Source: Eledone cirrhosa
Taxonomy: Eukaryota
Assembly: GCA_964016885.1 (NCBI GenBank)
Contig: OZ024745.1
Coordinates: 40,424,001-40,488,000 of the forward strand
Length of the DNA: 64,000 bases
Direction of reading: 5' to 3'
The notes beneath the pieces are model-generated. The model was given only the letters and a program-made list of their open reading frames with translations. It ran no database searches and had not been told where the DNA came from. Both the position numbers and the translations under genes were made by a program. Below, piece after piece: positions 33,711 through 41,859 of the stretch. Within the stretch, counting starts at the first letter, position 1. Every line of letters starts with the position of its first letter.

Positions 33711-34958
33711 TAACAATATAATTAGAAACACACAGATACATGCGGACACACACATATATACATGAATGCATCCGCACCCAACTGTGAGTTAAGGGTGCCA
33801 ACTTCACCGATGTTGCTCAATGAATGACTGGGACAGACCAATTCAGTTGAACTAGACTGAACCAGTATCAGAGTTAAAAATACATTATGAAGAGAGAAGA
33901 AACATTTAGATATAATTAGTAATAAAATGTATCATACCTAAACTGCTCCTAAATTCCTCGCCTACGTAGTTTCGTGGCATAAACAAAAACAATATATCAT
34001 AAAGATATAGAGTCCTTGCGAGGTCTGCCGACTTATCAAGAGGATACCTCATTTTACTAGTCTCAAGAACGCGTCTACACGACGTGAGAAAGAATCCCAA
34101 AAGGCGGAGGGGGAGATAGTCACGCGATATAACGGTCGAGAAACAGAGCTAAGCCTCACGTCGTGTAGACGCGTTCTTGAGACTAGTAAAATGAGGTATC
34201 CTCTTGATAAGTCGGCAGACCTCGCAAGGACTCTATATCTTTATGATATATTGTTTTTGTTTATGCCACGAAACTACGTAGGCGAGGAATTTAGGAGCAG
34301 TTTAGGTATGATACATTTTATTACTAATTATATCTAAATGTTTCTTCTCTCTTCATAATGTATTTTTAACTCTGATACTGGTTCAATCTAGTTCAACTGA
34401 ATTGGTCTGTCCCAGTCATTCATTGAGCAACATCGGTGAAGTTGGCACCCTTAACTCACAGTTGGGTGCGGATGCATTCATGTATATATGTGTGTGTCCG
34501 CATGTATCTGTGTGTTTCTAATTATATTGTTAATAACTCCCTCTGGTCGAGTAATCTTTGAAGTGTGGGGACAGCTGGAAGGCTTCCATTACTCATACTT
34601 CTCGCCTTCTTCACCACCTCTTCTACGGCCTCGATATAAAAACCCCCTCCGCCTCCGTGGTATTTTCTTCGGGGTTATAAGAGGCTTAGCTCTGTTTCTC
34701 GACCGTTATATCGCGTGACTATCTCCCCCTCCGCCTTTTGGGATTCTTTCTCACGTCGTGTAGACGCGTTCTTGAGACTAGTAAAATGAGGTATCCTCTT
34801 GATAAGTCGGCAGACCTCGCAAGGACTCTATATCTTTATGATATATTGTTTTTGTTTATGCCACGAAACTACGTAGTCGAGGAATTTAGGAGCAGTTTAG
34901 GTATGATACATTTTATTACTAATTATATCTAAATGTTTCTTCTCTCTTCATAATGTAT
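33711..34958. mobile_element. Non-coding 595-bp HHR unit (family D): inverted arm 33711-34157 plus ~1.3 direct units
   Basis: Period 595 (34157 vs 34752). The inverted arm looks identical to the permuted unit. (TA)n on both sides. Confidence 0.88.
34794..34883 (+). ncRNA. Type I hammerhead ribozyme, U3:A8 variant (other copies: 34199-34288 plus, 33955-34044 minus, 41334-41421 minus)
   Basis: tcctc TTGATAA gtcggca...tgccac GAAA ctacgtag TC gagga. Confidence 0.88.
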
Positions 34959-35129
34959 ATATATATATATATATATATATATATATATATATATATATAT
35001 ATATATATATATATATATATATATATATATATATATATATATATATATATATATATATATTATATATATATATATATATATATATATATATATATTATAT
35101 ATATTATATATATATATATATATATATAT

Positions 35130-35500
35130 TGGTGGAACACTGAAAGGTAATATCCGTAGTGGTAGAGCACTCAGTCAATGGGACGAGTTAGGTAGAAGTG
35201 GTTACACAACAGTTAGTTCACCGTACCGTAACAATTGTTTCACCTTACGGATCTTCAGCTCGGAATGGGCATGGTTATAGGAACAGGAAGGACAACCGTA
35301 CGAACGCGCATGCGCAGAAATCCGGTCACTTCACACAGGCAACATTAGACTGCGAGCGAGAGGTGTAAGTGACATAACAGGGGAAAGTCCGAAAAGTTTT
35401 TAGGTTGAAAATAAAATTACAAAGAATCAGTCCGGAGTCTTGTAGTTATGCAATAGGTGTTTGGTGACGTGTAGACAACGTGTGAAACATTCATTTCTCG
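35130..35500 (-). mobile_element. PLE pLTR remnant with a minimal HHR (35226-35263)
   Basis: Minus strand: CTGAAGA tcc gtaa ggt GAAA caattg TT acgg. Confidence 0.6.
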
Positions 35501-36014
35501 TGTTTAGGCAAGAGAGAGAGAGAGAGAGAGAGAGAGAGAGAGAGAGACTAGCAGAAAAACCACCCTCGGGAGGTTTTCTGACAGCCTGTGTAGTGCATAT
35601 TTTTATTATACGCAAGTATATATACATGTAGATAAGGTACATCAAATAAAATTGTAATTGATAATATACACAGAAATTGAAGAATGCATTACACTGTTTT
35701 ATGTAATCAGTAACGTAATCCGTTGACGGAAATATATGACTTTTAATTTAAAGGATCGCGAACCGGAGGTGTTGACATTTGAAAATGATAAAGAAGTGAA
35801 GTGAATCTAAAAATAAGCGACAAAAGTATTTATATTTAATCAAGAATAACGAAATTTAGCAGATAAATTATGTAATATTCATTAATTGTTTATTCAAAGT
35901 AATCCAACTTTTTTTACCAACGGGATAAAAAAAAATATTATGGGCATGGCCCGGACTCCTCCCTTTATTATAGTTTATATATAGATATATAGATATATAG
36001 CGGAGAGTCTTCAC

Positions 36015-36140
36015 AAGCAGATCACTCTGTAATTGGTGGAATGTATTCCCCCCCCCCCCAGTACCTTTTTTTTTCAACACTGGGATTGTCACTCCCGATT
36101 GCCATCGTATTGGTGCTTTTCCAGATAGCCAGGCCACAAA
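36015..36140 (-). pseudogene. Small RTE-like RT fragment
   Basis: AWLSGKAPIRWQSGVTIPVLKKKG. Confidence 0.5.
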
Positions 36141-37609
36141 AATTTCAGAATGAGAACCATATGCGTCTATTTGTTTAATGCTAAAATTATTTGCAAATGA
36201 ATTATGAATTTGTATATACTGATGTAATTAACGGTGGGACAGTAGTTAATTATGCCAGAGTTCATTAAGGCTCTCAAATACTTCTGAATTTAATTAATGC
36301 AAAATGAAAGGTTAATGTTAATTAAACTTATTAACCTTAAAGTTCACTAAAGTGTGTCAGGTTCAGGACAGGAAAAGGAAAGTAAATATATTAGGAACTG
36401 AATTACATAAATATAAGTTTATTCATAATAGACTGAAAGTAGGAACAATGACATGTGACTCAGTATTCAAGCAATTCTCGTATACCTAGCATAATTTCCA
36501 GTTTGATTCAGCATGATACGGTATCACAGGGGGGACCTTTTGAATTACTAGTACTGCCTATTAAACTATCCTTCAATGAGTTTTCGTCCAGTTGAAATTT
36601 CCTAACGTTTCGGGCATATTTCATGCGCTATGATTAATCACACTTGCTCAATTAAAATATATGATATATTTTTTTCATATACTGTTGTTATAGTATTTTA
36701 AATTTGTAAACTCGCACACACGTACTTCAACAAAGAATTTAATCATGGAATTTTACAAAAGTTTGGCATTCAAACATTCTCTAATATATGCGTAAGTACG
36801 TATGGGAAAATGAATAATGTACAGAGACATTTAATATGTTATAAAAAGTAATCATCCTCATACATTTATATTGAAATATGTAAGCTGCGTATGCATGTAA
36901 AAATGAAGACTTTTAATGTTCCCAATGGAGTACAATACGTACAAAGATTGAACACTATCCCATATATTGCATGGACTAACACATTAAATATAAAAAGCTG
37001 AAAATTGGCAAGAGCCGCATATGATTTTTATAAAATCATGACTTTCGTGACATAGTATGTACATTTATATTCGGAAGTACGGCATGTGTATGGGTTTAAC
37101 GGCATATGCTCCTGTTGATTCGAATAAGAGTTTAGCGTTGTGTGAATTTAAATTGCAAATGTGTGACAAGTCGACAAAGCTGAGAACCATTAATATAGCT
37201 CCCGGGGAAAATCAGCGTCACATTGGCTATGAAAAGAATGATATAAATAACTGAGTGCTTTGGTGTAACCCCAAAATAAGTGCGGTGCTCAAGGATAAAA
37301 CAATACCAAGTATCTAATTCAGGACCTTACGATAGTGTCACGAATATACTAAGCACTAAGACAAGCAGTTTCACAAATTCATATTTATATATATGCATGC
37401 GAAACGTACCAACAAAACAATACAGTACAATGAATATATATTTTATTCTTACGCTTAAATTAGTAGTTTAAGGCACTTGTCCTTTGGCAATAGATATTAC
37501 GAGAAATAAAAGAATAGAAATCTAGATGGGAGCGCTGGAACAAAAGAAATGCAAATTTTCCTTCGAAAAAAGCAACTTATATTTAATTACCCTTTATATA
37601 TATATATAC

Positions 37610-40086: not shown

Positions 40087-40722
40087 CTAGCAGCAGTACC
40101 CAGCGTTGCCTGGGTAGGTAAAATAATATCTGCTTTTATAAAAAGGTGTTGATCTTAGCGACTGCTTCTCGATCACTCTTCAATGGCAACACATAGGCTA
40201 TGCGGGGGAGGGTTGTGATGACCTCTATCACTGAGGAACGCGAGTGACTGACGAAGAGGCATGCAGGGTGAGAGAGTTTCGAATTTGAACGAAATCGGTT
40301 GAAAATTGTGGGAGCTAGAGCCGGAAAGGCGGTAATTTGAGCGAAAAGGTGGTATTTTCGAATATTTAAGCGGCTGCCACGCCGTTCCTGAACAAAAGAT
40401 GCAAAATATAACGCCATTACAGAATGTGCAATAATAAATTCTATTTTGCTTTAAGATTTGAACTAAATCAGTGGCAAAATGTGGGAGCTAGGGCCCAAAA
40501 TCTTATTTTTCGATACATAAGAAAAGGTGACACCACCCCTATCGATTTTATTCTGCAGAATGACACCGGAATAAAAGAAACGATACGATGATATATAGAA
40601 AACACTCCCCGATGACGAATCTATGAGCCTGTAAAGTTTTATGAAATTCGGTCGTAAGATGTAGGTCTCTATAGGTGATACAGACACACAAACACACACA
40701 CTTAATTTTATATATATACAGA
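40087..40722 (-). mobile_element. Non-autonomous Helitron
   Basis: Minus strand starts TC-tgtatatatataaaa and ends with the hairpin cccaggcaacgctggg then CTAG. Inserted between A and T. Confidence 0.85.
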
Positions 40723-40727
40723 TATAT

Positions 40728-40922
40728 ATAGGAACATGTTTAACCCCGACGGCAGAGCTCATGCCGTGTCAACGGCTATTTCGTCGAGGGTTAAACATTT
40801 TCCTATTAAACACTCTACTACACTAAGTATTGAGTACTCTGTTGCGTTATGGGCCATTTGGTTCCTTACCACACCTCCTTCGTTATATATATATATATAT
40901 ATATATAACGAAGGAGGTGTGG
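40728..40922. mobile_element. Family C-related pLTR tail fragments, direct and inverted
   Basis: 40728-40780 is a minus-strand HHR 3' half, 40781-40885 a plus-strand tail, and 40905-40922 an inverted tail end. Confidence 0.7.
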
Positions 40923-41095
40923 TATATATATATATATATATATATATATATATATATATATATATATATATATATATATTTATATATATATATATATATA
41001 TATATATATATATATATATATATATATATATATATATAAATATATATATATAAATATATATATTTATATATATATATATATATATGTATATATAT

Positions 41096-41859
41096 TTGGA
41101 AACACACAGATACATGCGGACACACACATATATATATACATGAATGCATCCGCACCCAACTGTAAGTTAAGGGTGCCAACTTCACCGATGTTGCTCAATG
41201 AATGACTGGGACAGACCAATTCAGTTTGAACTAGACTGAACCAGTATCAGAGTTAAAAATACATTATGAAGAGAGAAGAAACATTTAGATATAATTAGTA
41301 ATAAAATGTATCATACCCAAACTGTTCCTACATTCCTCGACTACGTAGTTTCGTGGCATAAACAAAAACAATATATCAAAGATATAGAGTCCTTGCGAGG
41401 TCTGCTGACTTATCAAGAGGATACCTCATTTTACTAGTCTCAAGAACGCGTCTACACGACGTGAGAAAGAATCCCAAAAGGCGGAGGGGGAGATAGTCAC
41501 GCGATATAACGGTCGAGAAACAGAGCTAAGCCTCCTATAACCACGAAGAAAATACCACGGAGGCGGAGGGGGTATTCATATCGAGGCCGTAGAAGAGGTA
41601 GTGAAGAAGGCGAGAAGTATGAGTAATGGAAGCTTTCCAGTTGTCCCCACACTTCAAAGATTGCTCGACCAGAGGGAGTTATTAATATATTTGGAAACAC
41701 ACAGATACATGCGGACACACACATATATATATACATGAATGCATCCGCACCCAACTGTAAGTTAAGGGTGCCAACTTCACCGATGTTGCTCAATGAATGA
41801 CTGGGAGAGACCAATTCAGTTTGAACTAGACTGAACCAGTATCAGAGTTAAAAATACAT
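41096..41859 (-). mobile_element. Second family D insertion (~1.3 units of 595 bp) with an intact GUC HHR
   Basis: Period 595 (41096 vs 41691). (TA)n on both sides. Confidence 0.88.

Follow-up and report, generated by a model that had tools for sequence, protein, structure and literature searches.

Metazoan non-LTR (long terminal repeat) retrozymes are described as hammerhead-bearing tandem repeats, and their RNA circles have been demonstrated in coral, mussel and axolotl (PMC7229834). Tandem complementary DNA (cDNA) templated by such circles, with Penelope-like elements (PLEs) as helpers, was proposed by Cervera and de la Pena in 2020 (PMC7229834), and local tandem growth was suggested by Li, Clavereau and Pollet in 2026 (bioRxiv 10.64898/2026.07.22.740005). 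What moves animal retrozymes, and whether their arrays arise by rolling-circle reverse transcription or by DNA-level satellite growth, is an open question in both of these group-defining papers. Here, a repeat family (family D) was analysed starting from a window of 64,000 nucleotides of Eledone cirrhosa (contig OZ024745.1, positions 40,424,001 to 40,488,000, forward strand), part of a 3.0-Gb animal genome with abundant (TA)n and retroelements. D, known here from genome sequence, occurs in the window as two insertions of a 595-bp unit (Table 1). D was judged, at a probability of about 0.68, to be a non-LTR retrozyme inserted by a Penelope-like enzyme that copies a monomeric, probably circular, RNA. 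Its parts were graded separately: that D is a retrozyme-type retroelement is nearly certain from its copies, that a PLE enzyme performs the insertion is very likely, and a circular monomer is probably the usual template.

Every sequence-level feature of non-LTR retrozymes that could be scored was found in D, and D is likely a further example of this known kind of element. With described metazoan retrozymes it shares a non-coding tandem unit, one type I hammerhead, a GC content of 41-42%, thousands of dispersed copies, a structured predicted circle and PLEs in the genome (PMC7229834; bioRxiv 10.64898/2026.07.22.740005). Its unit of 591-595 nt exceeds the 170-400 nt of one account (PMC7229834) and lies within the 51-972 bp of the other (bioRxiv 10.64898/2026.07.22.740005). 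In the predicted D circle the hammerhead is hidden; in most circles of metazoan retrozymes it is predicted to stay free (PMC7229834). Retrozymes were tied by Li et al. to the pseudo-LTRs (pLTRs) of PLEs (bioRxiv 10.64898/2026.07.22.740005), whereas no pLTR relative of D was found in the searches described below. Fixed ends, inverted arms and within-array haplotypes are features of D that are not described for metazoan retrozymes in the available text of these two papers (PMC7229834; bioRxiv 10.64898/2026.07.22.740005). No published account of such insertion anatomy for retrozymes was found in literature searches; rolling-circle copying and PLE helpers have been put forward in print as hypotheses.

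In insertion anatomy D resembles endonuclease-bearing PLEs. Craig et al. (2021) describe PLE insertions with 5' truncation, partial tandems, an inverted 5'-truncated copy, a tail at one end and a microsatellite bias (PMC8557442), and Frangieh et al. (2024) found in vitro that both strands of AT-rich DNA are cleaved and elongated by a PLE protein, with synthesis starting at two internal positions in the RNA (PMC11167929). D insertions likewise combine truncation, partial tandems, an inverted copy, extension at one end, microsatellite bias and two start sites downstream of the cut; they differ in that D has no reverse transcriptase (RT) or GIY-YIG open reading frame (ORF), its sites lie 165 nt apart, not 30-40, and the repeat is the whole element (PMC8557442, PMC11167929). 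A U3:A8 hammerhead core has been published for Schistosoma PLEs, and the Cercyon hammerheads of Schistosoma mansoni resemble that of D in their U3-A8 core covariation, in a palindromic helix III suited to dimer folding and in a short helix I; unlike them, D has a full 10-nt palindrome in helix III, a 59-nt stem II domain and a motif placed in a non-coding tandem unit, not a pLTR (PMC4209133). Non-autonomous Chlamys PLEs such as MRC1 are PLE-dependent, as D probably is, and like D are inserted as head-to-tail multicopies, but they share 3' ends with autonomous families and are mostly without canonical hammerheads (PMC8557442). By the sequence of its copies, D is PLE-like in insertion and not an autonomous PLE.

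Positions in the unit are given as phase, the number of nucleotides after the predicted hammerhead cut. Seventy-two loci were analysed: 21 non-redundant loci from the best full-unit matches, 50 pattern loci (all loci holding the first 100 matches of a 23-nt pattern from the 3' half of the hammerhead) and window insertion 1. Two of the pattern loci belonged to a sister family, S, which the 23-nt pattern also matches, and one duplicated copy was counted once; the final D set held 70 insertions with 105 arms. Within-insertion differences and haplotypes at 26 sites were scored in 61 D insertions. Genome-wide, the 23-nt pattern gave 7,458 exact matches (reversed control, 0) and a D-specific pattern spanning the cut gave 6,706; with the first 100 matches falling in 50 loci, D insertions were estimated at ~3,500. 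Unit matches (591-595 nt, GC 0.41-0.42) were dispersed over many contigs. Phases 1-23 were found in 7,076 copies, of which 6,706 (95%) continue through the cut, so most templates were continuous there, either ligated or uncut. This continuity and the Penelope-type insertion anatomy bear out the original prediction, made from the window sequence, of a non-autonomous, protein-free, hammerhead-bearing retroelement family in (TA)n. The same prediction had proposed a circular or multimeric RNA template; copies do span the cleavage site, and the data favour a monomer over a multimer.

The 3' ends of the 105 D arms were concentrated at two places, site A (phase 245-253; 54 arms) and site B (phase 80; 46 arms), with 5 elsewhere, and the 5' ends were spread over the unit. 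Both sites are AU-rich and each lies just 3' of a long predicted hairpin. The longest TA tract of the unit was never used as a 3' end in these arms, so pairing to the target alone does not set the two sites. Tabulating the phase of the ends, as had been suggested with the original prediction, placed them at two internal sites and not at the ribozyme cut; ends set by the cut were rejected on the same phases of 80 and ~245. In the 48 pattern-picked D insertions, 66 of 69 A or B ends ran into TA, and a preference for the tails of short interspersed elements (SINEs) was rejected (2/48). Target-site duplications of non-LTR retrozymes, when present, exceed 4 bp; in D no such duplication could be read, the ends lying within (TA)n, and no terminal direct repeats were found in the 70 insertions. 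More than one unit was present in 56/105 arms, 41/105 crossed the cut at least twice, and the longest reached up to 4.9 units. At least two consecutive complete hammerheads, the strict rule for an 'active' element, were present in arms of the family and not in the window copies.

Two arms were found in 35 of the 70 insertions, always head-to-head. These comprised 31 A+B, no A+A, no B+B and 4 with one unclassifiable end, so that all 31 classifiable cases were A+B (p ~4e-10). Extension was confined to one end in 31/31, with an A-B distance of 165 nt, and 5' truncation, partial tandems, an inverted 5'-truncated copy and microsatellite targets were all present among the insertions. Fold-back as the sole source of the inverted arms was rejected because in 13/31 A+B insertions, window insertion 1 included, neither arm is contained in the other. 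In 10/31 the two 5' ends lay within 25 nt of each other (p 2e-4), and fold-back, or annealing at hairpins, may lie behind some inverted arms. Junction microhomology ranged over 0-6 nt and reached at least 2 nt at 15 of 33 resolved head-to-head junctions, against 15% by chance. Both end sites are kept in family S, where 19 of 21 classifiable two-arm insertions were A+B and 2 were A+A. S is older, with a unit of 580-590 nt that is ~74% identical to D over its whole length (1,728 first-look candidates; L095-L129, e.g. L125:1868-2457, minus strand), and intermediates between D and S at 80-90% identity were seen at L039, L046 and L234. An ORF-bearing PLE family in the same genome shows the same head-to-head, unequal-end layout in (TA)n, with ends ~45 nt apart (L148, L150 and the window copy). 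The A+B rule bears on how PLEs make head-to-head insertions with a tail at one end.

Units within one D insertion differed by 0.34% (same arm) or 0.38% (opposite arms), against a median of 1.2% between insertions. At the 26 common polymorphic sites, 2 differences were observed in 1,203 pairs of tandem units, where random mixing would give 316, and 5 in 662 pairs of opposite arms, where it would give 178; pooled, this is 7 differences in 1,865 pairs against 494 expected. Most within-insertion differences (78/101) were seen in one insertion only, as expected of later mutations. Rare variants at sites covered at least 3 times occurred in one unit in 42 cases, in all units in 16 and in some units in 3; with another phasing of the 61 insertions the counts were 32, 5 and 3. 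At locus L133, four rare variants were present in all 7-8 units of both arms. A variant in every unit indicates that the array expanded from one unit, and its presence in the inverted arm as well means that crossing-over was not the carrier.

These patterns bear on two other accounts of the arrays. Growth at the DNA level, by unequal crossing-over of a solitary PLE end or by rolling-circle copying of a DNA circle, has been proposed for retrozyme tandems in the preprint of Li et al. (bioRxiv 10.64898/2026.07.22.740005), and the 3 partly shared variants together with locus L241 show some unit duplication. As the general origin of the arrays it is very improbable: crossing-over is unable to place the same private variants in both inverted arms, the strand-polarised fixed 3' ends, the A+B rule and the non-integer arms are left unexplained, and most later mutations are confined to one unit. 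An unlikely, though better placed, alternative keeps the element and the PLE enzyme and makes linear, uncleaved multimeric read-through RNA from master arrays the usual template, with a hammerhead that seldom cuts and circles that are rare or incidental. It accommodates the 95% of copies that run through the cut, and uncleaved RNA was the main substrate of a PLE protein in vitro, with hammerhead activity dispensable (PMC11167929). Rare variants in every unit (16 cases, against 3 partly shared) and homogeneous haplotypes would, on a multimer, need a one-unit bottleneck followed by re-expansion. The 78/101 differences private to one insertion indicate that unit-specific patterns are not inherited, and the hammerhead is kept between families D and S.

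Junctions at the cut also bear on the form of the template. Apart from one locus and 15 small homopolymer-type indels they were exact (a control interval had 5 deletions), and no added bases were found at the cut in the junctions surveyed (6,706 intact matches). The one locus (G000:C7:66521305-66525494; L240-L242, L247) is a 3.3-unit insertion in which 3/3 junctions lack the 8 nt directly after the cut; the search turned up the deletion at no other locus. Such a pattern is what copying round a trimmed and re-ligated monomer would produce. It is a single case, found by a search for changes at the cut, and two of its units share two changes absent from the third. Priming on a linear cleaved monomer, with RT jumping from its 5' end to its own 3' end to give multimers, would fit the denser 5' ends just after the cut: D 5' junctions with a purine flank numbered 20 at +1 and 18 at +10, against 4 of 15 fetched at -1 (18 matches) and 4 near phase 495, and in S 4/61 arms begin at phase 1-2 (p 6e-5). 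Exact junctions without added bases, and haplotypes that are not mixed as jumps between molecules would mix them, make this route quite improbable. Stalling of the RT in the first hairpin, or purine-rich microhomology, could instead account for the 5' excess; the step after the cut, suggestive of ribozyme use, is ambiguous.

A motif scan identified a type I hammerhead with a 5-bp stem I, the core UUGAUAA (U3:A8), a 59-nt stem II domain, GAAA and a 10-nt palindromic stem III, ACUACGUAGU, followed by GUC/GAGGA. Rfam returned no hammerhead at D motifs under either threshold (gathering score or E-value); in the window it gave nothing at gathering score and weak microRNA-type hairpin matches by E-value only. 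The ribozyme is thus predicted from motif, pairing and conservation. Hammerhead stems and core are identical between D and S at 43/44 positions, against 405/547 elsewhere (p 5e-5), which points to selection on the motif. Circular monomers folded better than shuffles, with z of -6.8 and -7.4, and -4.5 for S (25 shuffles each), and the hammerhead was not formed in the predicted circle fold. Whole-unit covariation, in which 9/172 pairs change on both sides and 3/500 shuffles were as high, gives weak support for the fold (8 sequences in two lineages, the structure being derived from the same sequences). A pattern search for other families with the same stem III returned only mutated D copies.

The unit was claimed to be free of protein-coding sequence, and this held: no similarity was found to 41 open stretches of at least 250 aa from the window and PLE loci (tblastn best E 0.45), and the longest ATG ORF was 75 aa in a natural trimer. 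A reading on which the unit is the pLTR of an ORF-bearing PLE and its copies are truncated PLE insertions had been named beforehand as the finding that would overturn the original prediction. Type I hammerheads, among them U3:A8 forms, are indeed known from PLE pLTRs (PMC4209133), which also produce an inverted layout like that of D. None of the 70 D insertions continues into an ORF; extension at the 5' side always enters another unit, the inverted arm or the flank. Among the 35 single-arm insertions, 5 had a same-strand retroelement protein match within 1 kb upstream, each separated by a TA run. In the sister family S, 26% diverged, the unit is moreover preserved whole as a repeat unit. The pLTR reading is largely refuted and is the least probable of those weighed; a rare ORF-linked master may account for less than ~4% of insertions.

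As candidate helpers, the genome has young families of PLE type whose intact ORFs measure 834 aa and ~1,000-1,200 aa. Pfam gave one weak RVT_1 match in 11 PLE protein queries and did not name the PLE proteins; the labels Hydra-like, Neptune-like and GIY-YIG for PLEs of this genome are our assumption from motif layout. In the window, a PLE at 23108-27925 (+) has direct pLTRs and a C-terminal endonuclease-like domain, with copies elsewhere that hold intact 834-aa frames; we take it to be Hydra-like by its layout, and a motif scan found no hammerhead in it. A second PLE, at 42758-48098 (-) and also at 1-920, is presumably Neptune-like, has pLTRs and a short inverted arm, and lies in (TA)n; its copies have frames to 1,216 aa and unequal ends. 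A likeness of site A to a TA/TG-rich stretch in one PLE pLTR was rejected (E 0.003-0.02, among simple repeats and out of register with the pLTR ends).

Several observations weigh against the preferred interpretation of a PLE enzyme copying a circular monomer. Targeting to (TA)n by the co-resident PLEs, as originally proposed, agrees with the Penelope-type anatomy, but the two co-resident PLE families compared with the unit showed no sequence link to it: among the matches listed, comparison of the unit with the window, 94 loci and 12 intact-PLE loci (by weak BLAST) returned only family members and microsatellite, and its ends showed no homology with the two intact PLE families or with PLE fragments in the fetched flanks. 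The A-B distance of 165 nt is far above the 30-40 bp of the PLE tail. No sharp 5' peak was found at the cut, the step extending from +1 to +10 or further. Folded as a monomer, the hammerhead lies above the ensemble by 2-3 kcal/mol in short context and by 6-9 with 120 nt upstream, and its 5-bp stem I shows virtually no covariation; this weak fold also favours a multimer template. Since dimeric pairing through the stem III palindrome is predicted at -12.9, our guess is that cleavage would be dimer-assisted or transient. For comparison, 8/9 predicted retrozymes were without cleavage (Li preprint, bioRxiv 10.64898/2026.07.22.740005). At L057, L014 and L241, two adjacent units share variants that a third lacks, and by these sequences DNA-level duplication or mixed templates also occur. 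Window insertion 1 has three hammerhead motifs, two of them changed from GUC to GGC; the inverted arm and the first unit carry the change, and the last unit lacks it. A pure monomer circle would not give this distribution, which calls for either a mixed multimeric template, on which twin priming would fit it, or later conversion between arms. Against the multimer template, a second locus with the GGC change was not found in the subfamily of insertion 1. Finally, sampling by full-unit match (21 loci) or cut-spanning pattern (50) inflated the counts of long and cut-crossing arms.

The insertion anatomy nonetheless supports the view of circle-templated cDNA and PLE mobilisation. On balance, a PLE-type enzyme may well prime reverse transcription of a single circular RNA from both strands of cut (TA)n, at two fixed sites that are separated by 165 nt and each lie 3' of a hairpin, with arrays and inverted arms born in one step from one molecule. 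Arrays would be transcribed, the hammerhead would cut at GUC, and monomers would be ligated to a circle of ~591 nt whose predicted fold hides the ribozyme. From known PLE biochemistry, an RT-GIY-YIG protein would bind this RNA and cut both strands of a (TA)n tract. The two target strands would prime at different sites, one at B (phase 80) and the other at A (phase ~245), which would give the observed pattern of ends. Each cDNA would be extended around the template, across the junction, to as much as 4.9 units, and the two cDNA ends would be joined head-to-head with 0-6 nt of microhomology, or one arm would be kept. If this is true, the mechanism by which animal retrozymes move is directly recorded in the genomic copies. 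D offers a young family with PLE-type ends and one-template arrays, names RNA sites 80 and ~245 nt past the cut, and has intact candidate helper ORFs in the same genome.

Both window insertions had been described as head-to-tail arrays of ~1.3 units with a 595-bp period. The period was recovered at both by BLAST of the unit and by a repeat finder. Insertion 2 is such an array, whereas the same two methods resolved insertion 1 into 2.1 units in two orientations, an inverted arm joined head-to-head to a tandem arm. This inversion, missed originally, is the most telling feature. A U3:A8 hammerhead with palindromic stem III was correctly claimed for each insertion, and the intact copies lie at 34794-34883 and 41334-41421; the window total is four D motifs, the two with GGC for GUC being additional to these and both in insertion 1. 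The right end of insertion 2 was retained and its start was moved from 41096 to 41090. Flanking (TA)n was seen on either side of both insertions, with 4/4 outer ends adjoining it. Private variants of the units at 41 kb had been taken to indicate a different master copy: the templates do differ (95.5% identity between insertions, 99.4-99.6% within), but just one rare substitution among those scored (2/61 insertions) is common to both 41-kb units, and other differences common to both recur in other 595-bp insertions.

Table 1. Features of the two family D insertions and their flanks, in window coordinates.
Feature	Position	Strand	Details
(TA)n, left flank of insertion 1	33683..33712		after SINE-like repeat at 33481-33683
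Insertion 1, inverted arm, 447 bp	33711..34157	-	5' end phase 396; 3' end site A, phase ~246, against (TA)n
Insertion 1, hammerhead motif, GGC triplet, predicted inactive	33955..34044	-	motif scan
Insertion 1, head-to-head arm junction	34155..34157		3-nt microhomology
Insertion 1, main arm, 804 bp, 1.35 units	34155..34958	+	5' end phase 465; 3' end site B, phase 80, ...CATAATGTAT, against (TA)n
Insertion 1, hammerhead motif, GGC triplet	34199..34288	+	rare change same as in inverted arm
Insertion 1, intact type I hammerhead motif	34794..34883	+	stem I 5 bp, core U3:A8, stem II domain 59 nt, stem III palindromic; cut predicted 3' of 34878
Predicted long hairpin, phases 1-71, just 5' of site B	34879..34949	+	sequesters 3' strand of hammerhead stem I in predicted circle fold
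(TA)n, right flank of insertion 1	34956..35129		
(TA)n, left flank of insertion 2	40923..41095		
Insertion 2, single arm, 770 bp, 1.29 units of 595	41090..41859	-	3' end site A (41090); 5' end phase 75 inside ATGTAT matching (TA)n target
Insertion 2, intact type I hammerhead motif	41334..41421	-	sole motif there; predicted cut 3' of 41339 on minus strand
(TA)n, right flank of insertion 2	41854..42179		

Each unit has two copies of the motif CCCCCTCCGCC (window 34654-34664 and 34726-34736), located in loops of predicted hairpins, and family S retains the motif; it might serve for protein binding in the loop or as a promoter element resembling a GC box. In runs X4 and X5 (kind unrecorded) the unit appeared as a closed contig of unit length + 30 at a depth of ~8, which both circular RNA and trace tandem-repeat DNA fit, and it was not counted. 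At L043 (G000:C1:19617000-19626900) one two-arm insertion is present twice, 2,554 bp apart; the pair is a local duplication or an assembly repeat.

Elsewhere in the window, ARAGORN found no tRNA. A SINE-like repeat of ~190 bp has at least 8 copies (5358, 19336, 31900-32267, 33481-33683, 37780, 55340, 56060), some as inverted pairs. Hammerhead-like motifs of C3:G8 type lie in an inverted arrangement at 54554-55199 (54660 -, 54765 +, 55149 +). A second U3:A8 hammerhead family, with the core UUGAGAA, is represented by short TA-flanked elements at 1791-1874 (-), with related pieces at 27928-28093, 40740-40924 and ~54027; insertion 2 is located in the TA run adjoining one of this group.

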